Origin: Minisyncoccota bacterium
GTDB lineage: Bacteria > Patescibacteriota > Minisyncoccia > Phycocordibacterales > WO2-35-19
Assembly (NCBI GenBank): GCA_041664625.1
Contig: JBAYKK010000004.1
Location: forward strand, 2,343 to 66,342
Length of the DNA: 64,000 nt
Reading direction: 5' to 3'
Shown: piece after piece, positions 1-61,319 of the stretch
Layout of the letters: each line of letters starts with the position of its first letter
Position numbering within the stretch: the first letter of the stretch is position 1
Translations under genes and position numbers: made by a program
Notes under the pieces: generated by a model
Databases searched by the model: none
Seen by the model: the letters and a program-made list of their open reading frames with translations, nothing else
Told to the model about the DNA's origin: nothing

Positions 1-383
1 AACAAATTCATCACTCATGTCGCTCGCTACTTTGGCCGAGTGTTCGATGATATGAGCAAGTTCGGGAGTCAAAAAAATCTGATAAGAAGGAGAAACCGTG
101 TTGCTGGAAGTGACTCCCTCCATGGCTTCAAAAAGTGAATCAGTAAGCAAGATTGTATCTACTTCCATTTTATCCAAAATCGAAGCCACCATACTGTCTT
201 CTTGCAAAATCAAAGCAGCCAAAAGATGCAGAGGGCCAACATGATTTTGGCCACGTTCAATTACCAGCTCGTGAGCTTTCCTGATGACTTCTTTGGCTTT
301 GGTTGTGAAATTGTTAAATGGAGTCATATTAGCGCTATTATAGCAGAAAAACAGCTTAAATCAAGCCTTTCTGCTTGTATAAA

Positions 384-10259: not shown

Positions 10260-10397
10260 ATTCCTTAAATTAGCTTGTATACCCAAGGAATGACGCTAAT
10301 CTCTATAAGAGTCTAGAGCATCTCGAGTTGGTAAGGTGTTTATACTCGCTCTTCAAAATGCTTTAAAATTGTGGCTTAAAGTGATAGTATTTCAATA

Positions 10398-13727: not shown

Positions 13728-13778
13728 TCAAACACTAAATAAAAATATATTATTTAGAATTTTTATTTAAAAAAATTT

Positions 13779-14579
13779 ATGTTCATACCAAAAAAAATTC
13801 TTTGTGCTGTCGGCGGGGTTGTAGTGTTAGTCGCTGTTTTCTTAATTGGGGTCTCGTCTGGAAATAAAAGTGAAAATTTAATATCAGAACAAACTGCGAC
13901 AGTGGTAGATTCAGATACGGCTAATACCAGTATTACTCCCAAATCTGGTGAGTTGGTCAAAGTGGTCAGAGTAGTAGATGGCGATACCATTAATGTTGAA
14001 ATAAATGGCAAAGTAGAGCCGGTGCGATATATAGGTATTGATACTCCAGAGACAGTTGATCCACGCAAGCCGGTACAATGCTTCGGAGTTGAAGCGTCAA
14101 AGAAAAATAAAGAATTAGTGGATGGTAAAATGGTGAGATTGGAAACTGATATCACTGATCGCGATAAATACAATCGACTACTTCGTTATGTTTGGCTTGA
14201 TGACAAGCTAATAAATCAGGCGTTAGTAGAACAAGGTTACGCTAAGTCATACTCATACCCTCCAGATATTAAATACCAAGATAAATTTGTGGTAGCCGAA
14301 AAACAGGCCAGAGAAAATAAACTGGGTCTTTGGACCGCTTGTGCTTCAGAAACAACTACGACGACAGTTCCAACTCCAACACAAACATCTTCATCTACTT
14401 CCGATCCTTCCTGTACCATTAAGGGTAATATAAGTTCGTCAGGAGAGAAGATTTATCACATGCAAGGTTGTGGTTCGTATTCAAAAGCCACCATAGATGA
14501 AAGTCGTGGTGAAAAATGGTTTTGTACAGAAACAGAGGCCCAATCTGCAGGTTGGAGAAAAGCTTTAAATTGTAATTAA
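13779..14579 (+). CDS. Secreted/membrane-anchored thermonuclease (SNase-like) with Cys-containing C-terminal domain; paralog of 54154-54954
   Basis: 266 aa; N-terminal TM; SNase motifs 'VVDGDTINV', 'RYIGIDTPE', 'NRLLRYVWLD', 'KLGLW'; ~88% nt identity to second copy. Confidence 0.8.
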   Translation: MFIPKKILCAVGGVVVLVAVFLIGVSSGNKSENLISEQTATVVDSDTANTSITPKSGELVKVVRVVDGDTINVEINGKVEPVRYIGIDTPETVDPRKPVQCFGVEASKKNKELVDGKMVRLETDITDRDKYNRLLRYVWLDDKLINQALVEQGYAKSYSYPPDIKYQDKFVVAEKQARENKLGLWTACASETTTTTVPTPTQTSSSTSDPSCTIKGNISSSGEKIYHMQGCGSYSKATIDESRGEKWFCTETEAQSAGWRKALNCN

Positions 14580-15861: not shown

Positions 15862-16005
15862 ATGGACTCTGATGAAATTTTAGAGCTGGTAAAAGAAGGT
15901 ATTATTGAACCAGACCAGGTCGAGGATTTTGAAAACCTTGACCCCGAAATTCAAGAATTGGTAGCCAATAGCGATTTAGATATAGATGAAGCTTTGGGTT
16001 TGTAG
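15862..16005 (+). CDS. Small, highly acidic protein (47 aa)
   Basis: MDSDEILELVKEGIIEPDQVEDFENLDPEIQELVANSDLDIDEALGL; paralogous copy at 61652-61796 is interrupted by a stop codon. Confidence 0.4.
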   Translation: MDSDEILELVKEGIIEPDQVEDFENLDPEIQELVANSDLDIDEALGL

Positions 16006-16279
16006 CAAAAAACTCCCGTCTCCGGAAGTTCTTTGCGGGAATAGCAAGCTACTTTGAAGGGAGAAAAGATTTCGTCGCTTGTCTCACACTTTGTTCGCTT
16101 CCCGACTCTCAATTATGCTCCTGTTATGCTCAGCCGAGCTCTTGGTACATCCGTAAACCAGTCCGTTGCTTTTTACCGCACCCTCTGTCTTTAGACAAAT
16201 CCACCGCACAAGGCGAATGACGGTCTTATTACAACCCCCGTTCCAAGCTAAGCTTGAAAATACCAATTCTCGCTATTCC
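16005..16279 (-). ncRNA. Unclassified structured ncRNA (~275 nt), copy 1; not RNase P, not tmRNA
   Basis: Reverse-strand -10 box (TAGAAT at 16286-16291), TSS ~16279; 5'/3' closing helix GGAAUAGCGAG/CUUGCUAUUCC; terminator hairpin UCCCG...CGGGA + U6 at 16005-16040; ~95% identical copy at 61320-61595. Confidence 0.55.
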
Positions 16280-16297
16280 GCTGTAATTCTATCAAAT

Positions 16298-16930: not shown

Positions 16931-17253
16931 AAGTCATTGTTTTATATTTCTGATTTTGATATTCTGATATGGACAATTGAATAAGAATGGCCTAAACCAG
17001 TGCTAAAACATTGGCATGGCAAAAAGTCCTTGGAAGATAAAGAACCCATCATGGGGTCGTCTTCCAAGGCCATATCGGGAAACCGGTATGAGAGGCTTCG
17101 ATCCTCTATCCGTGGTGGGCTTTTTGTTGTTCAGATTATTAAAATATGGGAAACTTACAAAGTAAAAGAATTTGATTAATATGTACACTCTCTTTGACAA
17201 TTTCAAAGAATAATGTATTATTAAATTATTCAATAATCATTAGCATTATTACC

Positions 17254-20115
17254 ATGAAAAAGTTTAGTTTGTTTTTCTCGATTTGCCTTAGTATCTTTAT
17301 GGTATTTGGCAGTTTTAGTATTCCAACTCTAGCTTACGAAAACAAGAGTGTTAATCTTGAGCAGGTCAAGACAGAAACCACACTTAACAATGATGCAAAT
17401 ACTCTTAATAAAATAAATTTAATATCTAGACCAGCCAACGATTTCTCACAAAATCTATTAGTGACCCAAAAAGGAAAAACTGGATTGGAAAAATCTCAAC
17501 AAATAGAAGTAAAAACCAAAGATTATGTAGACGGAGAAATTTTGGTCAAGTATAAAAATAATAAAATAAATCTACAAACTATTTCAGGCAAAGCAGCCGC
17601 TCTAAATTTTATTAATTCTAAATCGTTAGAGAAAAAAGAAGATTTGATAAAAAATAATATTTCAGTTTTGAGAATTAAAGATACAAAGACAGTAGAACAG
17701 AAGATAGCCGAATTGAAAAATGATCCAAATGTAGAATATGTTGAGCCCAATTATAGGCGTTATCCAGCGGTAATAAATACAAATGATACAAACAAAAGTA
17801 TTCTCTGGGGGTTAGATAATACGGGACAAACGATCAATGGAAGTTATGGAAATATTACAGGTACCAATGATGCCGACATTGACGCCCCTGAGGCCTGGGC
17901 GATAAGTGGGGCAACAACTTCTGTCCCAGTTATAGTAGCCGTGATAGACAGTGGCGTAGCCTATAACCATCCTGATTTAGTCGCAAATATGTGGGATGGA
18001 TCAAATTGTAAAGATGAAAATGGTAATGCTTTAGGTGGTTGCAATTATGGGTATGATTATGAAGATAATGACAAAACTCCACTTCCATCTTTTTCTTCTC
18101 ACGGAACTCATATTGCCGGAACAATAGCTGCGGCAATAAATAATGGCAAGGGTATAATCGGGGTGGCCCCAAATGCCAAAATAATGGCAATCAAATATGG
18201 TTTTAATGTTGCTTCAGAAATAAAGTCCATTGATTTTGCTATTCAAAATGGGGCGAAAGTAATCAATGCCAGTTTTGATGGTACCGAGTTTTCACAATCA
18301 GAATATGATGCTATTAACCGTTTTAAAACTGCGGGAGGAATTTTAATTGCTGCTGCTGGTAACGAGTCGACTAATAATGAAAGCGTTCATCTTTATCCTT
18401 CGGATTACAATTTGGATAATATTATTTCAACTGCGGCTACAGACCAAAATGATGCTTTGGCCACCTTTTCTAATTATGGAATAACATCTGTTGATGTTGG
18501 TGCTCCTGGAACAAATATTTATAGTACTGTTCCTTCGGAAACGGCTGTAGTATCTGAAAGTTTTGAAAGTCTAACACCACCAAATATTCCTAGTGGTTGG
18601 ATTAAAGGTGGAGCCAATAATAATTGGGGAACATATTCGCTAGATAGTGGCACTTTTTGGGGTAAAGTATTGTACGGAGATCTTGCATACCCATACGCTG
18701 ATAACAGAAATACTACTATTACATCTCCAGTATATAATTTAAGTATCGGGGGGGCCAATATCGATTTTTGGACTAAATGTGATACGGAATATATCACTGA
18801 TGGCTGGGCTGATTATATGCAATTAGAATATAGTGCTGATGGAGTTAATTTTTCTCCAGCGGTTGACCCGTTCTTTGGGGGAGAGTTTAGATGGGATGAA
18901 CCAACTCTCGATATTCTGAATGAGGAAAATCCTCTGAATAGTGCTAATGGGGCGTTATTTCATTATTCAAACATATCAATACCGGCTCAATATTTAACCA
19001 GTAATTTCAAGTTCCGTTTTCGCTGGGTGACTAATGCTTCAAATAATAATTATGACGGTTGTCTTGTTGATGATGTAAAAATTACTAAATTTAGTGATGG
19101 TTCTGATGAAAAATATGATTATAGTGACGGTACTTCAATGGCTACACCACATGTCGCCGGTCTCACCGCATTAGTTGAAGGATATAATCCTGGCCTTTCA
19201 CTAATACAGGTGAAAAATATTATATTAACAATGGGTGATAGTTTATCATCTTTATCTGGTAAAACAGTTTCTGGCAAAAGAATAAATGTGCAAAAAACGC
19301 TACAAGCTGCTAATCCTGCAAAAGCTATTACCGCATTTAGTTTTGCAACCCCAGTAGCCACTGGTGTTATTGATGAAATTACCCACACAATTACATTAAC
19401 CGTTCCATTTGGAACCGATGTTACTGCTCTTATTCCAACTATTGCAACTTCTACCGGATCGTCAGTTAGCCCAGCTAGTGGTGTGGTTAACAATTTTACA
19501 GCTACATCAACTTATACAGTCACGGCTGCTGATGGGTCCACTCAAGCTTATGCTGTGGCAGTAACTGTTGCACCTGCCGCAAGTCATACAATTTCTGGAA
19601 TAATAAAATATTATGACGGGATAAAAGTAATTCCAAATGCTACTGTGATTTTAGAAAATAGTATTGGCACCCAAATAGCCACTACTACAACAAATACAAG
19701 TGGAGCTTATCAATTTACAGAAGTTGCGAATGGGGGTAATTATGTTGTTAGAGTTTCCAAAGATGACAATTTTTCTTCTACCGGAGTTACTGTCTCAGAT
19801 TTGATAGTTATTAAAAAACATACCCTAGGAACGGAATTGACGGATATTTATGAAAAAATTGCTGCTGATTTTAATTCTAGTCAATCAATAACAGTATCCG
19901 ATTTAATAATGCTTAAAAAATTTACCTTAGAACGAATAGACGGGAGACCTGCTTCTTCTTGGAGATTTTATTCATCTAATGTTACGCCAGATGCAACAAA
20001 TTATTTGACCGTTGGCCAGACTAGAACTTACAGTAATTTAACGGCCAATACTCCCAACCAAGATTTTGTTGGTATAAAAATGGGAGATGTAAATAATTCG
20101 TGGGTTAGCAATTAA
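17254..20115 (+). CDS. Secreted subtilisin-like (S8) serine protease with C-terminal Ig-like and other domains
   Basis: Signal peptide; catalytic triad motifs 'VIDSGVAYNHPDL' (D), 'HGTHIAGTIAA' (H), 'GTSMATPHVAG' (S); C-terminal repeat shared with the next gene. Confidence 0.85.
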   Translation: MKKFSLFFSICLSIFMVFGSFSIPTLAYENKSVNLEQVKTETTLNNDANTLNKINLISRPANDFSQNLLVTQKGKTGLEKSQQIEVKTKDYVDGEILVKYKNNKINLQTISGKAAALNFINSKSLEKKEDLIKNNISVLRIKDTKTVEQKIAELKNDPNVEYVEPNYRRYPAVINTNDTNKSILWGLDNTGQTINGSYGNITGTNDADIDAPEAWAISGATTSVPVIVAVIDSGVAYNHPDLVANMWDGSNCKDENGNALGGCNYGYDYEDNDKTPLPSFSSHGTHIAGTIAAAINNGKGIIGVAPNAKIMAIKYGFNVASEIKSIDFAIQNGAKVINASFDGTEFSQSEYDAINRFKTAGGILIAAAGNESTNNESVHLYPSDYNLDNIISTAATDQNDALATFSNYGITSVDVGAPGTNIYSTVPSETAVVSESFESLTPPNIPSGWIKGGANNNWGTYSLDSGTFWGKVLYGDLAYPYADNRNTTITSPVYNLSIGGANIDFWTKCDTEYITDGWADYMQLEYSADGVNFSPAVDPFFGGEFRWDEPTLDILNEENPLNSANGALFHYSNISIPAQYLTSNFKFRFRWVTNASNNNYDGCLVDDVKITKFSDGSDEKYDYSDGTSMATPHVAGLTALVEGYNPGLSLIQVKNIILTMGDSLSSLSGKTVSGKRINVQKTLQAANPAKAITAFSFATPVATGVIDEITHTITLTVPFGTDVTALIPTIATSTGSSVSPASGVVNNFTATSTYTVTAADGSTQAYAVAVTVAPAASHTISGIIKYYDGIKVIPNATVILENSIGTQIATTTTNTSGAYQFTEVANGGNYVVRVSKDDNFSSTGVTVSDLIVIKKHTLGTELTDIYEKIAADFNSSQSITVSDLIMLKKFTLERIDGRPASSWRFYSSNVTPDATNYLTVGQTRTYSNLTANTPNQDFVGIKMGDVNNSWVSN

Positions 20116-20145
20116 AAAATTAATAATAATTAGTATAAAAATAAT

Positions 20146-23100
20146 ATGAAAAACAAATTATCGAAAAATATTAAAACAATTTCAAGCTATGTGCTTGCTT
20201 TATCAATCGTCGTTTCGAGTTTTGGTTTTGTCCCGATAGCACAAGCGGACATAACATCAACATTAACGATTGGCTCTCAGACGGCTGCATATAACGATAT
20301 TATAACTGTTCCCGTAACAGCAAATATTGTAAATATTCAAGGAATTCAACTTAGCATAAATTATCCTGAGTCAATGTTGAGATATGTTGGGTGTTCTTCT
20401 ACTCATATTGTCTGTTCTACTGATGTGGCTTCTTCCACTAATAAAATCAATCTTACCTGGTATGATGTGTTAAATTTTTTGACTTTAAATAATGAAGATT
20501 TGTTGTCGTTACAGTTTCAAGTAGTAAGTTCTGGTGTTACCGATACAGTTTTATCTTTTACACCTGTAGAGGTAATAAATAATATTGGTACTGACATTAC
20601 TGGGAACATTACCTTTAATTCAGGTACACTCACTTTAAATCCTGTCGCAACGCTCTCTAGTGTAGCCATTACTCATCCGGCGAATAAATTAACTTATACC
20701 GTCGGTGATGCATTAGACATTACGGGCTTAGTAGTTACCGGAACCTATAGTGATGCATCTACTGAAGTTGAGACTATTACAACAGCAAACGTAACCGGTT
20801 TTGACAGCTCGGTTCCAGCGACTGGTCAGGTTTTGACCATTACTGTTGAGGGGCAGACTGTGACTTATACAATTGATGTAGTTGATGCCCCCGACACCAC
20901 ACCGCCAACAATATCACTTTTTTATCCAGCTGATAATGCAACCAATGTATCAGTGGATGTCCAACCCACTTTGACTTTTTCTGAAGCCATTGATACCTCT
21001 ACAATGAATGGAGAAAACATTGAATTGCGTGAGTATGCCACACTTTCATCTGATGCAGAAAAAGTACCTGCGGCACTAACTTATTCTATAGGAAACAAAG
21101 TGACTTTTATTTTGTCTTCTCCTCTGGAACACAACAAACAGTATTACTTTTTCGTTGGGACGGGAGTTAAAGATATTGCCGGAAACAGTTTTGCCGCTGA
21201 CACATGGTACCATGCTCAAAGAGCAAATCATGAATTTACCACTGAAGCCCTGCCAGTCACACTGTCAAGTCTTACAATTACACATTTAGCAAACAAACTT
21301 TCTTATTTCGTGGGTGAACCATTAGATATCACAGGATTAGAAATTACTGGACATTATAGCGATGGCTCTACTGAGATTGTGACACCAGTTGTTGTGACAG
21401 GCTTTGATAGTTCAGCACCTGTTACTGGTCAGGTTTTGACTGCCACATTTGGAGGGAAAAGCACGACTTACATGGTTGATATTATTGTTGATGTTGGATC
21501 AATTGGTTCAACCAAAACAATCACTGCTTTTACTATTCCCGGTCAAATAGGCGAAACAATAATTAATGAGGAAGATCATACTGTTAATTTAACGATGCCT
21601 TATGGAACCGATAAGACTAATCTTATTCCGAATATTGTTATTGACGGTTCATCTATTGATCCTAATACCGGCGTTGCTCAAGACTTCACAAATCCGATTA
21701 TTTACAAAGTTACTGCAGCAGATACTACAACCCAAGATTATATAGTAACGATAAATGTGGCGGCCAATTCTGCCAAAGATATTGTTTCTTTCAGTTTTCC
21801 AGAGGGTAATGGTGTTATTACTGGAACCAATATTGCAGTAACCGTTCCATTTGGTACCGATATTACTGATCTCGTGCCGACCATTGTACTTTCCGGAGGA
21901 ACAATTAGCCCATTAAGCGAAGTGGCTCAAAATTTCACAAACTCGGTAACCTATACAGTTACGGCATCTGATGGTTTAACCAAAACGTATACAGTAACTG
22001 TCACTGTGGCTCCTAATAGTGCAGCAAATATTCTCTCCTTCAATTCTACCTTTCCCGTTGCAGTGGGTGTTATCAGCGGGGCCAATATTAATTTAACTTT
22101 ACCTTTCGGGACAAGTTTGGTTGATCTTCCGATAACTATTTCACTTTCTACTGGTGCTTCTGTCCTTCCAGCCACCAGCAATACAACTTTTACTGATGGA
22201 GTTGCAACAATTTATACGGTTACAGCCCAAGATGGTGTAACGACACAAAATTACTCAGTGACAGTAAATGTCGCTCCTAACACCGCCAAAGAAATTACCT
22301 CATTTAATTTTGAGGGCTTAACCCCGAGTGTCACTGGTATTATTAATGGGACCAATATTACTCTGAATGTGCCTTATGGTACTGATATAACCAATCTCGT
22401 CCCTACTATAGGAATTACTGGATCATCAGTAAATCCGGTAAGTGGTATAACTCAAGATTTTACTAACCCATCAACCTATACTGTTACTGCGGCTGATGGT
22501 ACAACTCAAAATTATACAGTAACGGTAGTTATCGCAGCACCATCTGACCTAACATTACTGGCTGCCGCTATTACCTCAGCACAGGCACTACACGATGCTG
22601 CCGTAGAAGGAAATTCTGTTGGTGAATATCCAGCACCTCTTAAAGCTAACTTACAAACAGCCATTAATACTGCCTCTACCATAACTCCTGCCTCTGCTCA
22701 GTCTGTCGTAGATGCTGCAGTTACCACCCTAAACGCCGCTGTTGCTACATTTGAAGCCGGTGTAGTTCTACCTGATACCACAGCACCAGTCATTACTCTT
22801 AATGGATCTTCACCTATGAATATGACCATTGGTCAAACCTATACGGAGCCGGGTGCTACTGCAACTGATAATGTAGACGCCTCTGTGTCAGTCACCGTTG
22901 GAGGAGACAATGTTGATACTTCTGTTGTTGGTACTTATGAAGTGACTTATAATGCCGTTGATGCCGCTGGCAATCATGCAACTCAAGTAGTTCGCACAGT
23001 AGTTATTTCTGATCTGGTTGTTTCTACAGAAGAAACAGCGAGTCCAACTACTGACAGCATTACTATCACTTGGACTACAAGCCACCCATCAACAAGCAGA

Positions 23101-24384: not shown

Positions 24385-25083
24385 TTATAGAAATCCCATA
24401 CTTTTCAAAATACCGATTCTATATTCGGAAGCTGGCATATCAAAATTTATCGTCTTGATTTTATTTTTCAATAATTTACGGAAATACAAAGATACGGAAA
24501 AAATATGTAATTTTTCAAATTCAGTTTTTATAGCAGAGTTATTGAAAGACTTTATAGAAACATTGAAAAATGGATCGAGCCTGTCCGACTTGGATATTGG
24601 CATCCAGTATATAAGCAGTGGCTGTGTCTTTGAATATTCTTTCGGTAATTTCATTTTGCCAAAAACTTTTGTTACTCCACTAGGGTATTTTTCATTTGAA
24701 AATTCTGTTTTCATCTGATGAGACCAATAATTATTCGTAACTTTTTTAGTTTCTTCTTCATCGGCATTTACAGCCAAGAACTTACCACCTATGGCAGTAG
24801 CCGACCAGTTTTTTATCTCGCATTGGAATAATGTCTTATTACCACCCTTATCTACTTCTATCCATCTATCCAATCTTTTCCCTTTTGAAGTCCCCGGGGT
24901 AACACAAAGAGGTTTTGAATTATCATCACAAAGGATTTTTGCCTTGCCGCCATTATTGTCTATGTAATGTTTGAAAGCACATGCATTGAGTTCCTCGCCG
25001 ATCATACCAACTATTGCACTTGCGTGTCCACGCACTGAAGGATTGTCCAAAAATTCCAAACATTTTATTATATTTATTTTCAT
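24385..25083 (-). CDS. Hypothetical protein, possible PD-(D/E)xK nuclease
   Basis: 232 aa; 'LDRWIEVD...QCEIKNW' fits a D...ExK pattern; otherwise unassigned. Confidence 0.25.
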   Translation of the reverse strand: MKINIIKCLEFLDNPSVRGHASAIVGMIGEELNACAFKHYIDNNGGKAKILCDDNSKPLCVTPGTSKGKRLDRWIEVDKGGNKTLFQCEIKNWSATAIGGKFLAVNADEEETKKVTNNYWSHQMKTEFSNEKYPSGVTKVFGKMKLPKEYSKTQPLLIYWMPISKSDRLDPFFNVSIKSFNNSAIKTEFEKLHIFSVSLYFRKLLKNKIKTINFDMPASEYRIGILKSMGFL

Positions 25084-25255
25084 GCCTTTAATAATGCCAC
25101 AATGTCTCCAATTATCCAGATGTTGGTAACTCCTCTTCGCAACCTTCTATATCTAAGCTAAGATACCCAACGATAGCAAAAAGTGCTATCATAACTTTGA
25201 CAACTTAATAGCAAGAGGAAGCCTAAACCATCCAGTCGATGGCATGGCATCCGAA

Positions 25256-25391
25256 GCAAGAACAACGCACGACACAAGAAAACCCGTTATTAGGGCGTGT
25301 CGTGCGTTACCAGGGGAAACTCTGGTAGAGGTTACCGCAAGGTACCTTCCTAGTAGCGGGCTTTGTTGTTCTTGTTTTAATCGCACGACAA
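25256..25391 (+). promoter_or_regulatory. Structured 5' leader (riboswitch-like) with alternative pairing that can sequester the translation-start region of 25392-26048
   Basis: CGCACGACA occurs at 25267-25275 and again at 25382-25390 (abutting the ATG); complementary GUGUCGUGCG at 25297-25306; enclosing helix CAAGAACAAC/GUUGUUCUUG; internal hairpins with GNRA-type loops (GCAA; GGGAAAC). Confidence 0.3.
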
Positions 25392-26048
25392 ATGGAAAAT
25401 GAATTAAAGTCTTCCGAGGTTAAGACTAAAAATATAACCTTAGGTTCGATTATTGGTTGGATATTTGGAGTGGTAATCGGAATCACTGGAATAATTAATA
25501 TATTCAGTAATCCGCTTTCAGGTTTGTTATTTATATTAGCTACAGTCATAACTCTGCCTCCTGCAAATAAATATTTGAAGGAGAAGATGCACATCTCTCT
25601 TTCAAAAGGAGTAAAGATAGTTTTGGTACTGATACTTCTTGGGGTCGCTGGAAGTCAGGTTGGAGAAAAAGCCAAAACGGAAGCAGTTCAAACTGTCAGT
25701 CAGACAACGGAAAAAGTTGAGGAAGTGGCAGAGCTGCCAAAAATAACAGCAAAGCAGATAGTTGATGACTATAAAGCTAACGAGGTATCTGCTGATGCTA
25801 AGTACAAGGGCAAAGAATTTGAGATTTCTGGCGTAGTGGAAACTATTGGCAAAGATATTATGGATACTCCATATATAGCTCTTGAGAGTTACGAATACGC
25901 TATCATCGACAAAGTGCAGTGTATGTTCAGTAAAGGATCTGAAGCTGAATTGGCTGCAGTTTCCAAGGAGCAGAAGATAACTCTAAAAGGTGAGATATCC
26001 GGCAAGCTTGGAAATATTCTTGTGAAGAGGTGTGAGATAGTGGATTAA
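25392..26048 (+). CDS. Membrane protein of unknown function
   Basis: 218 aa; two N-terminal TM helices, Lys/Glu-rich linker, C-terminal ~100-aa domain. Confidence 0.4.
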   Translation: MENELKSSEVKTKNITLGSIIGWIFGVVIGITGIINIFSNPLSGLLFILATVITLPPANKYLKEKMHISLSKGVKIVLVLILLGVAGSQVGEKAKTEAVQTVSQTTEKVEEVAELPKITAKQIVDDYKANEVSADAKYKGKEFEISGVVETIGKDIMDTPYIALESYEYAIIDKVQCMFSKGSEAELAAVSKEQKITLKGEISGKLGNILVKRCEIVD

Positions 26049-27559
26049 TTCAAGTAATATATCCTTGGCACTACCGGCGGCGCTTCAATGACACTCAGAA
26101 CCATATTGGCAAAAGCATCGGCCAAGTCGTCGTGTTTTTCCACTCCAAAGTGAACGATCTGTTGGATCAACTGCTCCGCTCCTTCTTTTGGAAAAAGTAC
26201 TTTACCGCTTTTGATCATATTGGCTGTTAGCACCAAACGACTTCGCTTGTCTTGATTACCGGGTCGAGTCGTCATCACCTCTCTCACACCCTCGGTTTGC
26301 ATTTGTTGAGGCAGAGCTTTTTGATAGCCGACATCTTCAACAACAAACGTCGGTTCCATGCCACCATGCTCATAACTTTTATCAAACAATTTACACATTT
26401 CAACCGTCTCCGGAAAATTCATTCTTTTGTTTATAATCTTGGGCAGAATATATATCCTGTAATAGTCTTCAAGTTCATAGAGCATAGCAGGTACTATGGC
26501 TGTGTAATCAGCGGCATCGTTTTTTGAAATAGCAGGGTCAACACCAATGCGTACTTCCATGTGAGAAGAATATCCACTTCTGAATTTCATAGGTTTAGGA
26601 ATGGCATCATAGTACTGAATCCATTCCTTATGTATCGCCTGATCTTCCGCCGGAACGATATTTAAGAGATACTCTCTTTGCCACGCAAATTCATTAGCTG
26701 CTTTACTTTTTTCTTCATCAATTGTCGCCATGTCAGGATACTTACCCAACCAAAGTATCTCCCCATTTTGTATCAAAGGATACGACTTGAAGATTCCATT
26801 TATTTTCCCATTATCAATATCTTCTTTAAGACGCATGAGGAGAGAGTCTTCGTGCAAGAGGTTACCGATGATCACGAGTCTTGTGTTGCGATCTCCGGCA
26901 GGAATGACTTCACCAGTTAGCCACTGATACGTTTTATTCCTACCTTCTCTAGTCTTAGTAGAAGCAATATCTTCCAAGTCGTCGCCAATAATAAGGTCTG
27001 GTCGGTGCTGATCGTGACGTAGACCTCTGATACTTTGCTCAGAAGATACTGCCGTGATCCTGGCATTCAGTTTGGAGAAGACCAGAGATGATGAACCCCA
27101 CTCATTGTGTTCTTCTTGGAATGGTCCAAGGTCGTTTTTGAGAAGAGTGTTACTCTCCAATTCTCGACGCAAGTTCATCATATGCTGTTTAGCTTGAGCT
27201 TGGGTTTGGCACAAAATTAGCACGAACTTCTTCTGCTGTTCTCCAAGAATTGCCCAGACAGGATATGAGGTAGTAAAGATGGTCGACTTGGCCGAGCCTC
27301 TAAAGGCAACAACGAAAAGATTCTTCACGTCCTCTCTTTCACTCAAATGGAACAACTCTTTTTGGAATGGCGCTGTCGCATATTTTACGTAGTGAGCGAA
27401 GTAGAAGTGAAAGAAGAGGAAATGGCTATGTTTAGCTATTTCGCTTCTCACCTGTCTATCTGAGAACATTTTATCCGCAAGTTCTGGAGTGAGGCCGCTG
27501 TTAGGTTTGTAATTTGAACTATCATTATTTATTTTCTTCATGATTATTTTGATTAACAT
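26045..27559 (-). CDS. Phage terminase large subunit
   Basis: 504 aa; Walker-A-like 'FRGSAKST'; C-terminal nuclease motif 'IGVDPAISKNDAADYTAIV' and 'DDLADAF' typical of TerL RNaseH-like domain. Confidence 0.7.
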   Translation of the reverse strand: MLIKIIMKKINNDSSNYKPNSGLTPELADKMFSDRQVRSEIAKHSHFLFFHFYFAHYVKYATAPFQKELFHLSEREDVKNLFVVAFRGSAKSTIFTTSYPVWAILGEQQKKFVLILCQTQAQAKQHMMNLRRELESNTLLKNDLGPFQEEHNEWGSSSLVFSKLNARITAVSSEQSIRGLRHDQHRPDLIIGDDLEDIASTKTREGRNKTYQWLTGEVIPAGDRNTRLVIIGNLLHEDSLLMRLKEDIDNGKINGIFKSYPLIQNGEILWLGKYPDMATIDEEKSKAANEFAWQREYLLNIVPAEDQAIHKEWIQYYDAIPKPMKFRSGYSSHMEVRIGVDPAISKNDAADYTAIVPAMLYELEDYYRIYILPKIINKRMNFPETVEMCKLFDKSYEHGGMEPTFVVEDVGYQKALPQQMQTEGVREVMTTRPGNQDKRSRLVLTANMIKSGKVLFPKEGAEQLIQQIVHFGVEKHDDLADAFANMVLSVIEAPPVVPRIYYLN

Positions 27560-27995
27560 TATTAATTTCTTCTAATACTGCAGTCGGCTCCTCTTCTGGA
27601 GGAGATTCCTGTGGATTTTGCGGGGCAAGAGAAGCCAGACGAAGAGCTTCTCTCACTGTTGCTTCTTGCTCTGGAGTCAGAGCGTCTTCTTTATCAAGGT
27701 GAGCCGTAATATCAATGCGATTTTTATAAGTCGCATGATTGTTTCGAAGCCAGAACATAATTCCGGACATGTTGCCTTCCTTAATGGCAGAGATGAGCTG
27801 AGATTCAGCTAGATCATTTACCAGAAGCGAGCCGTCACGCAGAGCCTCATCCGCCTTGTCCACAAACTCCTTGTCCTCCTTTCGCCAGAAGTAATATGTG
27901 GATCGACCAATGCCTAGCTTTTGGCAAGCGGTTTCCACGATGGGAGTTTTCTTTAACTGCTCTAAAAGCAATTCTTTGTTTGCATTAGTTTTCAT
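27525..27995 (-). CDS. HTH protein, putative terminase small subunit
   Basis: 156 aa; HTH 'VETACQKLGIGRSTYYFWRK'; directly upstream of and overlapping TerL; acidic C-terminus. Confidence 0.45.
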   Translation of the reverse strand: MKTNANKELLLEQLKKTPIVETACQKLGIGRSTYYFWRKEDKEFVDKADEALRDGSLLVNDLAESQLISAIKEGNMSGIMFWLRNNHATYKNRIDITAHLDKEDALTPEQEATVREALRLASLAPQNPQESPPEEEPTAVLEEINNVNQNNHEENK

Positions 27996-28765
27996 ATCTT
28001 TTTGGATTTAAAACCTGTTAATTTTTCAAAGCGGTCAATGATTGTTTGGCAGTATTCAGAATCCAACTCGACCATAAAGCACCTTCTCTTCGTCTGTTCG
28101 CAAGCGATTAAATCGGTTCCTGAACCTCCAAAACCGGAATACACCAAGTCTCCAATATCGGTACTATTTAGAATTAGATGCCTCACGAGGCCAACCGGCT
28201 TCATAGTCGGATGCAGACTGCTTTTATTCGGCTTGGGGAAACAGAGTACCGATTTGTCCTTCGACTTCTTGAAGTCATGGGTGCCATACCAACCGAAAGC
28301 AATGAGTTCGTGCATTGGAAGATAATCTTTCCTGCCGATAACCGAGTGATTTTTGACCCAGATGAGGAGTTGAGAGAATGTGATTCCAGCTTCGGCCATA
28401 CCCTCCCTTAGAGCAAAAATCATTTTGTCCGAGTTGAAGATGTAGAAGCTATTTTTTCTTTCGAGATATGGCTTCACCGCTTCTATCCAGTCGTGAGTGA
28501 ATCTCCTATACTCGGCATCGCTCTGGATGTGGTCATTGACGATCACTTTATTTTTCAAAAGTGTTTTGAAATTCTGTTTGCTCTCCGCGACTGCTACGCC
28601 ATATGGCACATCGGTAATGACCGCTTTAATTTTCTCTTTGCCGATAAGTTTCTTTACCAATTCTTTGTCTCTTGCATCACCGCATGCAAGAAAGTGGGAT
28701 CCGAGTTGGAAAATATCGTCAACTTTAATTGAGCTTTTTGGCTTTGTTGCCGCTGATTTTTTCAT
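27992..28765 (-). CDS. DNA methyltransferase (N4/N6, PF01555-like)
   Basis: 257 aa; motif IV-like 'VITDVPYG'; AdoMet motif 'VYSGFGGSGTDLIACE'. Confidence 0.75.
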   Translation of the reverse strand: MKKSAATKPKSSIKVDDIFQLGSHFLACGDARDKELVKKLIGKEKIKAVITDVPYGVAVAESKQNFKTLLKNKVIVNDHIQSDAEYRRFTHDWIEAVKPYLERKNSFYIFNSDKMIFALREGMAEAGITFSQLLIWVKNHSVIGRKDYLPMHELIAFGWYGTHDFKKSKDKSVLCFPKPNKSSLHPTMKPVGLVRHLILNSTDIGDLVYSGFGGSGTDLIACEQTKRRCFMVELDSEYCQTIIDRFEKLTGFKSKKI

Positions 28766-29996
28766 ATCGATTGATTATTACTTGAGTAAATACTGGTTCT
28801 ACTTCTGCAAGGAAAGCTTGACGCTTCAATCCTTCGCAGGCGACCATAAGACTTCCTGATCCAGCGCAGAGATCCAAAATTACGTCTCCAACTTTGCTAC
28901 ACCTTCGGAAGGACTTCTCATACAAACTCGGTGGCTTCATGGTCGGATGTTCGTACTGATTTCCAGGCAATCTTTTGACCAACCATATTTGGAGCATGTC
29001 CAAAACATCGTCTATCAGACGATTACCGCTACCGATTTCTCGATTCATCACTTCGTTCAGATTTTTTACATTCTCAGAAAGGAATGGCTTGCCTTTGGTG
29101 CCGTACATACACAGCTCGACCGTTCGGTTAAAAGCCACCTGAGGAGTGGGGTTGTGCGATCCTTTAATCCACATGCAGAGCCTTTTGAAATTCACTCCTG
29201 ATTCTTTGAAGATGGTCTGGAAATTCCCAACATATTTTTCATCGAGCCAAGTGAAGACATGACAATTGTCCTTGCTAACCGATAGAGCGTTTAGGAGAAT
29301 GCTTTTAACAAAATGTTCGTATTCTGCCTCGGATTTTTTATCATTAGTCTTACCACCATAATTCTGCCTGCCTCCAAGCCCAGCCGAATAGTCGACCCCT
29401 ATGTTGTAAGGAAAATCTATATTTATAAGATCCACCTTTTCTTTACCAAGAAGCTTCTCGATATTTTTTGATTCAGTACTGTCTCCACAAAGAAGTCGGT
29501 GATGTCCAAGCTGAAAAAGATCCCCAGATTTTATAGAGGTCTTTTTTGCTTTTTCTATCTCCTCCTCAACATCTAGCTCGTCATCCTCGATTGAGAGATT
29601 CTCGTCCCAGATGTGGCTCAAATCTTCGTTTTCAAAACCGACATCAAGCAACATGTTTATATCGAAGGATTTAAGGAGATCAAAATCCCAAGCCCCCTGA
29701 TTGGCATTCATGCGGAGCAGAAGCTCACGCTCTTTTTCCTCACTTGGGATATTAAGGTATATGACAGGCACGGTCTCGTATTCAAGCTCTTTCGCCATCT
29801 CTAAGCGAAAGTGGCCAGAGATCAGGCAACCCTTTCTTTTTGGAGATGAATTGACCAGAAGTGGCTCCGTTAAACCGTGCCGTTTTATACTTTCCTTTAG
29901 ATCACTTCTGGCCTTTTCGCTCCAGTATCGCGGATTATTTGGAGATGGTATAATGCAACTAACAGACACATATTCTACTTTCAATTTTTGATTCAT
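28725..29996 (-). CDS. ParB-like nuclease domain fused to DNA methyltransferase (N4/N6)
   Basis: 423 aa; N-terminal ParB/Srx 'IIPSPNNPRYWSEKARSDLKESIKRHGLTEPLLV'; 'NIDFPYNIG' motif IV; 'ILDLCAGSGSLMVACE' AdoMet site. Confidence 0.8.
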   Translation of the reverse strand: MNQKLKVEYVSVSCIIPSPNNPRYWSEKARSDLKESIKRHGLTEPLLVNSSPKRKGCLISGHFRLEMAKELEYETVPVIYLNIPSEEKERELLLRMNANQGAWDFDLLKSFDINMLLDVGFENEDLSHIWDENLSIEDDELDVEEEIEKAKKTSIKSGDLFQLGHHRLLCGDSTESKNIEKLLGKEKVDLINIDFPYNIGVDYSAGLGGRQNYGGKTNDKKSEAEYEHFVKSILLNALSVSKDNCHVFTWLDEKYVGNFQTIFKESGVNFKRLCMWIKGSHNPTPQVAFNRTVELCMYGTKGKPFLSENVKNLNEVMNREIGSGNRLIDDVLDMLQIWLVKRLPGNQYEHPTMKPPSLYEKSFRRCSKVGDVILDLCAGSGSLMVACEGLKRQAFLAEVEPVFTQVIINRYEKISGNKAKKLN

Positions 29997-35330: not shown

Positions 35331-35693
35331 CTAAATATTACTACTACCACCACTACCTATAGTTGGTATTGGTATACTAGAGTTATTGGTAATATTAAAT
35401 TCCTCCTGAATAAATCTTACTAAACCCCAAACTGAAGCCATGACGAAGAGAGCAACAACTCCCCAAATCATTATCTGTCTACCCTCAGCTTTGGCTGTAC
35501 CTTCAGACCATATGTATTTGGCCACACCCCAGAAAAAGAAAAACAAAGCCAAAGTAAAAACGAGAGGGATGAGCACATCGGTAACCATAGTTTTTAAATT
35601 TGTAAAAAATGTGCTGGTTTCCCCTAGAGCTTCAGCAGAAGCCAAGACTGGTAAAACTGTTAAGGTTAAAACAAAATAAAACTTTTTTAACAT
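35331..35693 (-). CDS. Small two-TM protein, VirB2/TrbC-pilin-like (paralog 3)
   Basis: Signal peptide; 'IMIWGVVALFVMASVWGLVRFI' identical C-terminal TM to paralog 2. Confidence 0.4.
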   Translation of the reverse strand: MLKKFYFVLTLTVLPVLASAEALGETSTFFTNLKTMVTDVLIPLVFTLALFFFFWGVAKYIWSEGTAKAEGRQIMIWGVVALFVMASVWGLVRFIQEEFNITNNSSIPIPTIGSGGSSNI

Positions 35694-35722
35694 AAATTTT
35701 AAATACTAATAATTATAATTTG

Positions 35723-35995
35723 TTACTGTTTGCTTACACTTCCTATACCTGGTATACCCAGCTCGACTTGTATAAATTTAATTATACCCCAGATAGAAAA
35801 AGCTACAAACAACCCGACGATGCCCCAGACCATGACTTTTTTGCCTTCTTCGGCTGCTTTGTCGCCTGCCGCCCCGCTTCTTATATATTTGGCTACGCCC
35901 CAGAAAAAATAAAACAAACACAAGGCAAAAGCCAAGGGTATTAGCACATTTTTCACTATCCCAAACGCTGCGTCTATTATATCTATAATTCCCAT
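35723..35995 (-). CDS. Small two-TM protein, VirB2/TrbC-pilin-like (paralog 4)
   Basis: 'VMVWGIVGLFVAFSIWGIIKFI' C-terminal TM. Confidence 0.4.
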   Translation of the reverse strand: MGIIDIIDAAFGIVKNVLIPLAFALCLFYFFWGVAKYIRSGAAGDKAAEEGKKVMVWGIVGLFVAFSIWGIIKFIQVELGIPGIGSVSKQ

Positions 35996-36009
35996 ATTTT
36001 ATTTTTTAA

Positions 36010-36312
36010 TTATTTTTTTAAATCTTTTGGTATTTGAGGAATAAGTGGAGTGGTGCCATTTCTAAAACCAAATTCTCCTTGTAAAAAGTAAACAATCCCC
36101 CAAATCGTAACCATGACAAACATCCCTACCACCCCCCAAATAAGCAGATTTTTGCTGTCTTTGATTTCCTTTTCACTACCAGCCGAATTGATATATCTGG
36201 CCACTCCATAGACGAATGCCAAAAATGCCACCGCTCCCAAAAATGGTACGAGTTTGAGCCCGATACTGGTAAATAAATTTATGATACCTGCTAAACCATC
36301 GTTTGGATTCAT
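36010..36312 (-). CDS. Small two-TM protein, VirB2/TrbC-pilin-like (paralog 5)
   Basis: 'LLIWGVVGMFVMVTIWGIVYFL' C-terminal TM. Confidence 0.4.
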   Translation of the reverse strand: MNPNDGLAGIINLFTSIGLKLVPFLGAVAFLAFVYGVARYINSAGSEKEIKDSKNLLIWGVVGMFVMVTIWGIVYFLQGEFGFRNGTTPLIPQIPKDLKK

Positions 36313-36318
36313 TTTGTT

Positions 36319-36738
36319 TTATGTTTTTAATTGATCAATCGTGGTACCAATAGCTTTAGAAATAACCGAAGCCCCGAGAAGTATAGCCGCCCCGACCACT
36401 GCCCACGTCAAAGCATCAGTGGCTTTTTTGATTTGACTAGTATCGCCTCTGGCGGTCACATACATAAATCCGGCATACATGATCATCACGACCGCTACTA
36501 CCCCACCCACCGGCATCAAAATATCGTTTATTATGGTCTCTATCAGGCCTTGGATACTATCAAGCTTGAAAGGATTTTTGATTATTATATTCATAGCCGG
36601 AGGTTTGCCCGCACCACCTTCATCACCACCTCCACCACCCTCTTGACCATTCACAAACAAAGGTGTAATCAAAATAGCTAGCATCAAGAAGCTTACGAAA
36701 TAACTTAAAATATTTTTGGCTTTATGAGATTTAAACAT
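36319..36738 (-). CDS. Small two-TM protein with Gly-rich linker, VirB2/TrbC-pilin-like (paralog 6)
   Basis: 139 aa; signal peptide, GGGGGDEGGAG linker, two hydrophobic helices. Confidence 0.35.
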   Translation of the reverse strand: MFKSHKAKNILSYFVSFLMLAILITPLFVNGQEGGGGGDEGGAGKPPAMNIIIKNPFKLDSIQGLIETIINDILMPVGGVVAVVMIMYAGFMYVTARGDTSQIKKATDALTWAVVGAAILLGASVISKAIGTTIDQLKT

Positions 36739-36758
36739 ATTTATATTATTTATTAATT

Positions 36759-37154
36759 TTATTTGACTCCTTCTACTGATGGGTTGGCCTTGAAATTTTC
36801 CCCACCATTATTACTTCCATCACTTAAAAGACTGTTGGTAATAGTGGTTACGATAATCCAAGCGGCCAAAATAGCCACGAAACCTATAAAAACTTTTTGC
36901 ATCATCGCTTTGGCAGCTGATTTTTGATCCGAAATACCAGTCGTCATATAAGTGAAGCCAGCCCAAGCAAATACTCCGGCTGCCACCGGCACCGATATCA
37001 TTATAATCCAATTTATAATGTTGTTTACCAATTGCATCAGATCATTATACCCACAATTTGGACTACAATTTGGTACAAAAGCTCCTTGAGCAAAAACAAA
37101 GATAGGTAGAATGATTAATGAAAAAACTAAAATATTTTTAATTAAAAACTTCAT
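36759..37154 (-). CDS. Small two-TM protein with Cys pair, VirB2/TrbC-pilin-like (paralog 7)
   Basis: 131 aa; signal peptide; 'CSPNCGY' motif; two hydrophobic helices. Confidence 0.35.
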   Translation of the reverse strand: MKFLIKNILVFSLIILPIFVFAQGAFVPNCSPNCGYNDLMQLVNNIINWIIMISVPVAAGVFAWAGFTYMTTGISDQKSAAKAMMQKVFIGFVAILAAWIIVTTITNSLLSDGSNNGGENFKANPSVEGVK

Positions 37155-38438
37155 TTATTTATTTAACAGAGCAGAGATTTCTCGGCTCGTTTTAAATACC
37201 GCTTCACTGGTCCTAACCCTACCGCTTGTGATTGATTCTATCATGCTCTTAAATATAACATCGGTTTCGATTGGGGATGGGTCAAGCCAAGCTTTACTTT
37301 TGATCGCACTATCATAGAAAACACTTTGATATGCATCTACCGGTTTTTTGTTTAAAAGATCATGTCTGACCGGAGGCAAATTCAAGGTTTTGCTGAAAGC
37401 CGATACTCCCGCCGTCCCCGAAAGGACCGAGACTACAGCAAAGGCAGCCGACGGCACTTTGGAAGATTTGGTGATGGCCAAAGCATTGAAATTAGCAAAA
37501 GAAACATTGACTCCCCCTTCACGCGAAACCGGTACAGTAGTCACATCAAAATTTAAATTAGGATTTTTTAATTGTAGATTTGCTATTTCACTAGCAAAAC
37601 CAAAGTACAAAGCCAAATCTCCACTCAAAAAGTAATTGGTAGAATTTGATAAGGAACGATTCCAAGAATAAGAAGGTTTGGACGGGTTGCCAAATTCGGT
37701 ATAAAAATTGACAGCAGCTTCAGCTGGCACAGTGGGTTGACCGAATGTATCAGCAAAAACACTTTGTATTTTGGTACCGTTCCAAGTAGTGACCGGAGTA
37801 CCCGCCTGCATAGCCAAATTTATGATGATATCTTTGGCGTGAGAGATGTTGGCATACTCACCCAAAGCTACGGCACTTTTTGAAATATTCAAAGAACCAT
37901 CTTTTTTGGATATAACATTGGCTAGATTATAAAATTCATCCCAATATTTTGGTGGTTGCGTCATTTTGGCCTGAGTGAACAAAGCTCGGTTCCAATACAT
38001 GACTAGTGGATCAACAGACACAGGTAAAGCCATGATACCTTCTGGAGTCATATAAATTTCAGAGCCTTCTATAAAAGCATCTTTAAATTGTCTTTGAGTA
38101 AAAACATTGTAAGGAATGACAAATATTTTGTTGCGATGTTTCAAAATCTTTTGAGATGGTAGCATAAAAATATCTGGACCAACTCCCGAAGCTAAACTTT
38201 CAACAAAACTTGAGTCAAATTCGTCTGCAGTTTTTTGAACATACTGCACAGTAAACTCCTTGCTTTGATACAAAGAAGTTTCTTTGACTACGTTATTGAA
38301 ATCATTTGCAGACATGGTACCCCAGATCACCACCGTCGTTGCGTCTTGAGAATTGCCTCTGTAAGCGGAAAAAATAATAACTCCGCCGATCAAAAATAAC
38401 CCAAAAACACCCATCAAAATAATTTGAAATTTATTCAT
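37155..38438 (-). CDS. Extracellular solute-binding protein (ABC transporter SBP, family 1, sugar-type)
   Basis: 427 aa; N-terminal anchor; 'PDIFMLPSQ', 'VDPLVMYWNRALF' family-1 SBP signatures; first gene of the operon containing the seven two-TM proteins. Confidence 0.65.
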   Translation of the reverse strand: MNKFQIILMGVFGLFLIGGVIIFSAYRGNSQDATTVVIWGTMSANDFNNVVKETSLYQSKEFTVQYVQKTADEFDSSFVESLASGVGPDIFMLPSQKILKHRNKIFVIPYNVFTQRQFKDAFIEGSEIYMTPEGIMALPVSVDPLVMYWNRALFTQAKMTQPPKYWDEFYNLANVISKKDGSLNISKSAVALGEYANISHAKDIIINLAMQAGTPVTTWNGTKIQSVFADTFGQPTVPAEAAVNFYTEFGNPSKPSYSWNRSLSNSTNYFLSGDLALYFGFASEIANLQLKNPNLNFDVTTVPVSREGGVNVSFANFNALAITKSSKVPSAAFAVVSVLSGTAGVSAFSKTLNLPPVRHDLLNKKPVDAYQSVFYDSAIKSKAWLDPSPIETDVIFKSMIESITSGRVRTSEAVFKTSREISALLNK

Positions 38439-54143: not shown

Positions 54144-54153
54144 TAAAAAAGTT

Positions 54154-54954: not shown

Positions 54955-54962
54955 AATATAAA

Positions 54963-55952: not shown

Positions 55953-55955
55953 AAA

Positions 55956-56501: not shown

Positions 56502-56504
56502 ATT

Positions 56505-59788: not shown

Positions 59789-59792
59789 AAAT

Positions 59793-61300: not shown

Positions 61301-61319
61301 AAATAGACAAAAACTGATA

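Follow-up and report, generated by a model that had tools for sequence, protein, structure and literature searches.

In the window, i.e., the whole 64-kb stretch of DNA that was analysed, a membrane protein gene was recognized beside phage terminase and methylase genes. Its product (25392-26048) was assigned to PF12869 (tRNA_anti-like) with an E value of 5.4e-25 and to PHROG 8545, i.e., 'superinfection exclusion Sie-like', with an E value of 2.7e-14. The window also encodes T4SS-type pilins, and its gene starts are AU-rich and poor in Shine-Dalgarno (SD) sites. Over approximately 1.4 kb, it showed 79-81% nucleotide identity to L029, a MAG of the Patescibacteria group. The 24-30 kb region gave no match when searched against deposited phage genomes, and no relatives of the downstream protein were found in viral contigs. 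Contigs encoding an identical downstream protein had leaders that were 100% identical, and they added no comparative information.

Ahead of this gene, the first-pass annotation had described a riboswitch-like leader. The Rfam search that it suggested was run with cmscan and revealed a known family that had been missed. Positions 25220-25346 (+) match LOOT, RF03000, at 50.1 bits against a gathering score of 46.4, with E values of 1.8e-6 over the whole window and 1.1e-8 locally. The stretch that had been flagged makes up the greater part of one LOOT copy, and the finding is a new instance of an already known family, not a new riboswitch. A second copy, LOOT_A, was found at 16989-17107 of the window and matched more strongly, at 78.8 bits. 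LOOT is an orphan structured RNA family of candidate-phyla bacteria without an assigned function. It originates from the comparative-genomics alignments of Weinberg/Breaker, which were derived from metagenomes. In Rfam, the model comprises 121 positions and the type is 'Gene; sRNA'. In the searchable main texts, LOOT is named only in lists, apart from one remark on many 'cross-covariations'.

The hallmarks of LOOT are all present in this copy (Table 1). The letters at 25221-25248 are identical to the consensus of the P1 loop, CCUAAaC / GCAUGG, P2 is long, P3 carries a GAAA loop, and P4 has a 4-nt loop (GCAA) and is the GCAA-loop hairpin recognized in the first pass. The lower stem of P2 has 10-12 bp here, and the fit of upper P2 to the Rfam model is poor, with non-canonical marks. 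The low score of this copy (50 bits) is due to a 10-nt insertion in the P1-P2 linker, which has 15 nt here versus 6-8 nt in most of 158 LOOTs. The stretch originally delimited, 25256-25391, covers P2, P3, and P4, but misses P1 and the probable start near 25200. Further features of the family lie outside the Rfam model, i.e., a 5' motif with a promoter, a pseudoknot made by the tail, and competing copies downstream. These features argue for a cis leader rather than for the 'sRNA' type given by Rfam.

Table 1. Features of the LOOT copy and of the gene that follows it, in window coordinates.
Feature	Position	Strand	Basis or remark
Probable extended -10 element, TGcTATCAT	25184-25192	+	7 nt upstream of the 5' motif; from family conservation
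Conserved 5' motif, ACAACTTAATAG	25200-25211	+	Probable transcription start at the first A; absent from the Rfam model
LOOT P1 hairpin with internal loop CCUAAAC / GCAUGG	25221-25248	+	Rfam alignment; GAAA-receptor-like
5' arm of the enclosing helix, within an unusually long P1-P2 linker	25254-25266	+	Inverted repeat I1
P2 5' strand 'a', CGCACGACAC	25266-25275	+	Rfam alignment and repeat search
Pseudoknot 5' strand 'b' (P2 internal loop, apical 5' side and loop)	25279-25294	+	Core CCCGUUAUUAGG at 25283-25294
P2 3' strand 'a-prime', GUGUCGUGCG	25297-25306	+	Able to pair with 'a' or with the start-proximal copy
LOOT P3, 8-bp stem with GAAA tetraloop (25316-25319)	25308-25327	+	Rfam alignment and covariation
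LOOT P4 hairpin with GCAA (GNRA) loop	25330-25346	+	Rfam alignment and covariation
Conserved 3' tail 'b-double-prime', CCUAGUAGCGGGCUUU	25349-25364	+	Predicted pseudoknot 3' strand; past the end of the Rfam model
3' arm of the enclosing helix, GUUGUUCUUGUUU	25365-25377	+	I1; duplex -16.0 kcal/mol
Start-proximal copy of the P2 5' strand, 'a-double-prime', CGCACGACA	25382-25390	+	Repeat search; recurs in approximately 14% of LOOT loci
Downstream gene, 218-aa membrane protein with tRNA_anti-like OB domain, Sie-like	25392-26048	+	PF12869, PHROG 8545

The three-way repeat on which the first-pass annotation was built is real. Within the 64-kb window, CGCACGACA is confined to the element, where it is found three times, i.e., at 25266-25274 (+), at 25382-25390 (+), and as the complement at 25298-25306. 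The expectation from shuffling was 0.14 occurrences, and 0/100 shuffles reached 3. The copy furthest upstream exists as described, with its position corrected from 25267-25276 to 25266-25275. The P2 3' strand is 100% complementary both to the upstream partner over 12 nt (I2, 25264-25275 / 25297-25308) and to the alternative, downstream partner over 9 nt (I3, 25298-25306 / 25382-25390). The duplex energies are -22.4 kcal/mol with 'a' and -16.1 kcal/mol with the start-proximal copy. The latter lies near the start codon as claimed, and a single base separates 25390 from the ATG at 25392.

The enclosing helix of the first reading is present (I1, 25254-25266 / 25365-25377, 13 nt, 92% complementary), and it is formed by the linker insertion, by which the window copy differs from the rest of the family. 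As a family feature it was rejected, because pairing between linker and tail showed no cognate excess and the window linker is an outlier. The hairpin written as 'CCAG-GGGAAACU-CUGG' exists and is better described as an 8-bp stem, 25308-25315 / 25320-25327, closed by the GAAA tetraloop. As had been observed, the element is GC-rich for this genome, with a peak of 0.525 (25220-25339) versus approximately 0.28-0.43 in the flanks. Folding of 25256-25391 gave an MFE of -54.3 kcal/mol versus -35.1 +/- 4.0 kcal/mol for shuffled controls (z = -4.8), and 0/200 shuffles were as good. For 25215-25400, a z of -5.6 was obtained.

To gather LOOT copies, GTDB species genomes and viral contigs were searched with an exact P1 pattern. 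For metagenome copies, the tail pattern GRGCTTT was required in addition to the P1 pattern. The resulting comparative set holds 164 distinct copies, almost all from Patescibacteria/CPR MAGs, and Rfam re-testing of comparison loci returned LOOT in 14/14 at 66-97 bits. Conservation of the P1 letters, and of the tail letters in the metagenome set, follows from how the copies were selected, whereas the covariation of the pseudoknot and the downstream copies do not. The start-proximal copy was equally frequent in both ascertainment sets, i.e., 13% and 14%. The lower stem of P2 has at least nine consecutive pairs in 155/164 LOOTs.

The 3' tail of LOOT (GGGCUUUUUGU; ...GYGGYGGGCUUUUUGU) is complementary to the P2 internal loop and the apical 5' side of P2. 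Among 179 LOOT instances, the complementarity was 10/10 in 128 and 9/10 in 42. In the window, the predicted helix has 12 bp (25283-25294 / 25349-25360). Covariation was assessed on a MAFFT alignment of 116 non-redundant copies, i.e., an alignment that was not fitted to the structure. Family-wide, the helix comprises 13 pairs, is 93.9% paired, and has 9 pairs that changed on both sides; one of them occurs as GC35 / AU31 / CG28 / UG11 / UA7. A conserved A.C mismatch lies at its centre. The U-rich run of the tail belongs to this helix, e.g., AUAAAGA + UUUUUGU and AUACUGA + UUUGUGU. Because the 5' strand of the helix sits inside the P2 hairpin, the topology is that of a pseudoknot. The many G.U pairs make the structure strand-specific and hence a structure at the RNA level. 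The apical P2 stem of the Rfam model, which is the alternative to the pseudoknot, was 48% paired on the gappy MAFFT alignment. From comparative sequence evidence, the strongly covarying tail-P2 pseudoknot is counted among the established features of the family.

A tertiary contact is likely between P1 and P3. Across the family, P3 is 97% paired, 8/8 pairs covary, and its GAAA loop is nearly invariant. The canonical 11-nt GAAA tetraloop receptor is CCUAAG / UAUGG (PMC11381326). The P1 loop of LOOT, CCUAAA / CAUGG, resembles this receptor, and the sole difference is that the receptor's G.U is replaced by A.C. Together with the GAAA loop of P3, this resemblance points to docking of the tetraloop-receptor type.

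On the 5' side, the motif ACAAYYDAAW was found 11-29 nt upstream of P1 in 83/162 LOOT loci. A TAnnnT hexamer lies 4-8 nt upstream of the motif in 75/83 loci (control, 11.6%), and TGn accompanies it in 32 of the 75. A generic scan for sigma-70 promoters and terminators over 24900-25600 called nothing relevant. Judged from the conservation in the family, the LOOT here probably has its own promoter, with a transcription start at approximately 25200. Pairing of the 5' motif with a segment after the tail was also considered as a candidate; it showed only a weak cognate excess and was not general.

The position of LOOT relative to genes is that of a leader. The long open frame downstream is co-directional with LOOT in 130/142 loci and opposite in 5, while the genes upstream are of mixed orientation (68 to 44). 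The distance from the tail to the first in-frame ATG of the mechanically called ORFs has a median of 35-38 nt. In the class with a start-proximal copy, it is 8-44 nt, which leaves no room for a separate promoter. Past the tail, terminator-like hairpins were at background, i.e., in 16/150 loci versus 18/149 upstream controls. A terminator-type expression platform after the tail was rejected as it is not enriched in the family, and locus L246 is an isolated example. The best explanation is that LOOT forms a 192-nt 5' leader of the 25392-26048 gene and not a free-standing gene.

The start region of this gene is unusual within the window. An SD-like motif was found in only 5/43 window genes, and positions -14..-1 average 20% GC. 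The same region of the 25392 gene has 43% GC, owing to the start-proximal copy. A GC-rich start region fits shaping by the need to pair.

The start-proximal copy recurs in other LOOT loci. In 20/150 loci, the P2 3' strand and the 70 nt downstream of the same LOOT were able to form a duplex at <= -14 kcal/mol, while 0.9 was expected from non-cognate controls, which kinship among LOOTs inflates, and 0 was found in upstream flanks. At <= -12 kcal/mol, 21 loci were counted, with 20 different P2 sequences among them, which means that the three segments covary. Most of these 21 loci have a complementary site that stops no more than approximately 3 nt from the called ATG and forms a duplex with about the energy of P2. 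Expressed for the family, approximately 14% of LOOT loci repeat the P2 5' strand just ahead of the ATG, with 0-3 nt in between. The longest exact repeats between the LOOT body and the downstream 200 nt join the start of the P2 5' strand to a site 13-33 nt past the tail, with the ATG within a few bases.

Upstream regions were compared among relatives of the 25392-26048 product, as had been proposed in the first pass. In L002 and L275, the gene for a relative of the Sie-like product is preceded by LOOT with a start-proximal copy of different sequence. In L246, which has the closest full-length homologue (49% identity), LOOT lacks the start copy and a terminator-like hairpin is found instead. Where the copy is present, 'a' and the start-proximal copy are almost always identical. 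Only 9 internal differences were found in 27 loci, and 3/9 were pair-preserving, without enrichment; selection for pairing is thus not separated from selection for identity. The family as a whole cannot have translational gating as its general role, since the start-proximal copy is limited to approximately 14% of LOOTs.

A second downstream segment, b*, repeats the pseudoknot 5' strand. It is a local partner for the tail in 70/150 loci, versus 27 for the kinship-inflated non-cognate control and 6 upstream, and it is present in 17/21 start-copy loci. The order of b* followed by the start-proximal copy suits a nested alternative fold, and simple duplication would not yield such an order.

These competing segments define two mutually exclusive folds. 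In Fold 1, P2 and the pseudoknot would be formed and the start region would be free. In Fold 2, the start region would be closed, as the P2 3' strand would pair with the start-proximal copy; P3, P4, and a tail hairpin would be enclosed by this pairing. By a nested energy model, the two folds are within 3.5 kcal/mol of each other in 14/21 loci. The window copy is the extreme case. It has no b*, it has the extra enclosing helix, and its Fold 2 is 10.6-13 kcal/mol less stable than Fold 1 before the pseudoknot is counted, so that spontaneous switching is unlikely in this copy.

The genes downstream of LOOT are diverse. The 139 downstream proteins belong to 63 Pfam families and none is dominant; DUF4352, zinc ribbons, DNA methylases, tRNA_anti-like, Ltp lipoprotein, trypsin-like proteases, HsdR_N, and Mrr are among them. 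By PHROG and PADLOC scans of the loci, superinfection-exclusion families, methyltransferases, and endonucleases were recognized. Such heterogeneous accessory genes do not indicate a metabolite riboswitch. The claim of a riboswitch-like leader can thus be kept in part: a structured 5' leader with three-way pairing is backed by the comparison, while the riboswitch part is unsupported. Besides the missing ligand-type gene association, the most conserved unpaired nucleotides resemble a GAAA-tetraloop receptor rather than a binding pocket, and in the window copy the start-occluding fold is disfavoured by the energy given above.

The neighbourhood of LOOT is also that of mobile elements. A large serine recombinase gene was found within a few kb of 58/161 LOOT loci, and 50 of the 58 are upstream. 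Of these upstream genes, 43 are divergent, 12 of them merely 115-250 nt away, and 7 are co-directional, their stop codons lying 52-78 nt from P1. In all, 19 recombinase genes lie 52-250 nt from P1. Between related LOOTs (80-93% identical), homology is limited to approximately -55..+45 around the element and the flanks are unrelated. Because homology is confined in this way, LOOT behaves as a portable promoter-leader module, and it precedes accessory, moron-like genes on mobile islands. At L288, two LOOT-gene units are placed in tandem.

Taken together, it is plausible that the LOOT leader acts in cis as a structural gate on translation of the Sie-like 'moron' gene, and we give this reading slightly better than an even chance. 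With a folded LOOT core, the P2 3' strand would be held by the P2 5' strand, and the start region would be single-stranded and translatable. The GAAA loop of P3 is predicted to dock on the receptor-like loop of P1. When the core is unfolded, remodelled, or stripped of its 5' part, the freed strand would clamp the start region and translation would stop. Candidate triggers are an ion, a protein, a small ligand, and 5' decay. The extra enclosing helix of the window copy would bias the gate strongly to 'open'. An open start region would matter here because the organism is almost without SD sites. In this scheme, LOOT family membership, the leader position, and the recurrence and covariation of the competing segments are taken as established from sequence comparison, as is the pseudoknot. 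The transcription start, the tetraloop docking, the effect on translation, and any switching are what we infer from them.

The same observations could be read without any switching. LOOT would then be a constitutive 5' module of accessory-gene cassettes, i.e., a stabiliser against 5' decay, an insulator, or a processive antitermination RNA of the put/EAR type, and the start copy would be tolerated or weakly functional. It is reasonable to consider this reading, since LOOT is promoter-proximal ahead of very diverse genes, related LOOTs are portable between unrelated flanks, the LOOT fold is strongly favoured in the window copy, and 86% of LOOTs have no start-proximal copy. However, it leaves unexplained why a 9-14-nt complement of the P2 3' strand lies at the start codon in 20/150 loci versus 0.9 expected, why a second competitor, for the tail, is present in approximately half of the loci and in the order of a nested fold, and why the fold energies are nearly equal in 14/21 loci. 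We regard a purely constitutive module as unlikely, though worth keeping in view. A small molecule or ion, e.g., a second messenger or Mg2+, could instead stabilise the pseudoknotted fold and keep the start open, with the downstream copies as the expression platform. The conserved core with variable 3' platforms (start copy, tail copy, and occasional terminator-like hairpins) is like that of a riboswitch class, the architecture joins a pseudoknot with a tetraloop-receptor-like pair, and in many loci the two folds have nearly the same energy. Heterogeneous genes, including phage-borne ones, are likewise found downstream of second-messenger riboswitches such as c-di-GMP-I. Against ligand sensing, the downstream genes (63 Pfam families / 139 proteins) give no coherent clue to a ligand, and the receptor-like loop, the GAAA loop, and the pseudoknot use most of the conserved unpaired nucleotides, so that little is left for a pocket. 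In most copies, no platform can be recognised over the start codon, and terminator-like hairpins do not exceed background. A ligand-sensing riboswitch is judged improbable; the gene set and the lack of an obvious pocket speak against a metabolite, whereas a global signal is still conceivable.

The type given by Rfam, 'Gene; sRNA', would have LOOT as a stand-alone sRNA, set free at the U-rich tail and acting in trans or structurally, with the start copy as a target or incidental. The tail does end in a U-rich run, and a few loci, e.g., L246, have a canonical terminator-like hairpin past the tail. LOOT_A (16989-17132) is followed by a strong, independent promoter-like sequence, TTGACA-16-TATTAT (17194-17221), before the next gene, and this copy may be a released sRNA. 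The U run, however, lies in the covarying pseudoknot helix, no terminator was called in the scanned region here, and the terminator-like hairpins of the family do not exceed the upstream controls (16/150 versus 18/149). The co-directionality of 130 to 5 and the ATG spacing of 35 nt would be unexpected for free-standing sRNA genes, and a would-be seed would be sequestered in P2 of the folded RNA. We give a stand-alone sRNA a low probability. At the level of DNA, the repeats could be recombination or mobility sites (att-like, or a cassette junction) of the neighbouring large serine recombinases. The recombinase genes near 58/161 loci, with 50 upstream and 19 at 52-250 nt from P1, the LOOT modules in unrelated flanks, and the tandem units at L288 are in line with it. 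But the helices are G.U-rich and well formed on one strand only, the GAAA tetraloop and the receptor-like loop are an RNA tertiary motif, and homology spans the entire element without internal breakpoints. The att sites of serine recombinases are short imperfect palindromes around a 2-bp core and not 150-nt multi-hairpin elements. This DNA-level explanation is very improbable, and the cis-acting gate is the reading that we retain.

The proposed gate shares features with several known systems. In the pseudoknot riboswitches SAM-II, preQ1-II, and fluoride, as in LOOT, a structured domain lies in the 5'-UTR, the 3' tail forms a pseudoknot, and a strand pairs internally or with the start. LOOT differs in that its gene context suggests no ligand, its start region is outside the pseudoknot, its anti-start strand comes from the 3' side of an ordinary hairpin, and the platform is found in only approximately 14% of its members. 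In the c-di-GMP-I riboswitch (GEMM-I), a GNRA tetraloop and its receptor hold the helices together, and the downstream genes are heterogeneous and include phage-borne ones. LOOT shares the tetraloop-receptor-like pair, as predicted, and the heterogeneous downstream genes, whereas it consists of four hairpins and a pseudoknot and no c-di-GMP-I match was returned by cmscan here. In the rpoS leader with DsrA and in the tac/fbi refolding of hok mRNA, an internal strand can occlude the start, pairing of a competitor keeps translation on, and the state flips when a competitor is taken away or supplied. The competitor in LOOT would be the P2 5' strand of the same leader, not an sRNA acting in trans or an element of the 3' end. 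As far as can be told from the searchable main texts, there is apparently no earlier description of the LOOT pseudoknot, of LOOT as a leader, of the competing copies, or of the association with recombinase islands.

In a wider and more tentative reading, LOOT would be no sRNA but a new class of cis-acting bistable leader, i.e., a riboswitch-like sensor, which controls accessory, defence, and superinfection-exclusion genes on the mobile islands of Patescibacteria. P2 and the pseudoknot would hold the two start-closing strands, and the module would spread with large-serine-recombinase elements. We consider this generalization possible but doubtful.

In the candidate phyla radiation, whose gene regulation is very little known, LOOT is widespread as a structured RNA. 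The features found here suggest that the Rfam model of LOOT and its type annotation could be extended. With its promoter-proximal leader position, a pseudoknot that had not been modelled, and competitors in the start region, an orphan motif becomes a testable hypothesis of gene regulation in these bacteria.

The Rfam model of LOOT (RF03000), the structured RNA family of the main element, ends at hairpin P4. It leaves out the 3' tail, i.e., the conserved strand that pairs with the apical 5' side of P2, which was universal among the LOOT loci in alignment A2 of the LOOT copies. The tail and P2 form a pseudoknot with strong covariation in the same alignment (e.g., loci L110, L037, L102, L099, and L119). 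The model also lacks a conserved 5' motif, ACAAYYDAAW, sited behind the -10 box. At about half of the LOOT loci, a segment downstream pairs locally with the tail, so that the U-rich run falls in a hairpin loop.

Another LOOT RNA was found in the window at 16957-17132 (+), with 78.8 bits, a score above that of the main element. Its tail was the same as that of the main copy. The start-proximal copy, i.e., the repeat of the P2 5' strand just before the downstream ATG, was absent at this LOOT, and the duplex reached no more than -5.9 kcal/mol. Because a promoter-like site precedes the next gene, the second LOOT may be a separate transcript.

Coordinates of the features in the window
Feature	Position	Strand	Remark
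Large serine recombinase gene 1	8940-10286	-	paralogue of gene 2
Probable -10-type element TGaTATTCT	16957-16965	+	promoter layout as in main LOOT
5' motif ACAATTGAATAAG	16973-16985	+	layout as in main LOOT
Strong promoter-like site TTGACA-16-TATTAT	17194-17221		between second LOOT and S8 peptidase gene
S8 peptidase gene	ATG 17254		next gene after second LOOT
Two large surface proteins	19390-22418	+	five copies of 62-nt repeat
Terminase large subunit (Terminase_6C)	within 26045-29996	-	
Small HTH protein	within 26045-29996	-	
N6_N4 DNA methylase	within 26045-29996	-	
ParB-N-methylase fusion	within 26045-29996	-	
Three T4SS/TrbC-type pilin genes	35331-37154	-	tandem
Large serine recombinase gene 2	48896-50197	-	paralogue of gene 1

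The start-proximal copy was also absent at the L246 LOOT, 168-330 (+), whose locus encodes the nearest full-length homologue of the Sie-like protein of the window (49% identity). In place of the copy, a terminator-like hairpin comes after this LOOT (AAACTCT-CATGCC-AGAGTTT with TTTATTA), and the 5' arm of the hairpin could pair with the LOOT tail as well. The L246 LOOT may be an attenuator-type variant.

Among the start regions of 43 ORFs across the window, an SD-like motif was found in merely 5, and the mean GC of the 14 nt upstream of start codons was 20%. Several genes, e.g., those at 3053, 37155-38438, and 38494-41004, carried a TATAAT-like hexamer 8-15 nt upstream of ATG. Hexamers so near ATG suggest that the mRNAs are leaderless or have very short leaders.

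The 62-nt repeat of the surface proteins encodes Ig-like/DUF5018-type modules. Such repeat-bearing proteins and tandem T4SS/TrbC-type pilins are both typical of episymbiotic CPR bacteria.

Convergent with the LOOT-led gene, a phage-type block was located at 26045-29996 (-). Nucleotide search of this block against deposited phage genomes gave no match.

Two pairs of direct repeats, 13770-14069 with 54145-54444 (87% identity) and 16003-16297 with 61318-61612 (94% identity), had their partners spaced 40-45 kb apart. They are parts of paralogous blocks with SNase and YceG genes. Each recombinase gene has one of these blocks lying downstream of it, and the second block (54145-61612) holds approximately 5 kb of additional genes. 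Candidate origins of the blocks are a duplicated target region of an island and a segmental duplication.

A large serine recombinase gene lay within a few kb of LOOT in 58 of 161 fetched loci (including L037, L265, L112, L260, L312, L099, and L290). It was upstream of LOOT in 50 of the 58, many 52-250 nt off P1. LOOT-gene units have the appearance of cargo carried by recombinase-borne islands, or of modules at the island edges. At L288, two LOOT-gene units were placed in tandem on the same strand, 11389-11526 (-) and 12740-12877 (-), at a spacing of 1.3 kb and with 82% identity of the LOOT pair over about -55 to +60; this arrangement looks like a cassette array.
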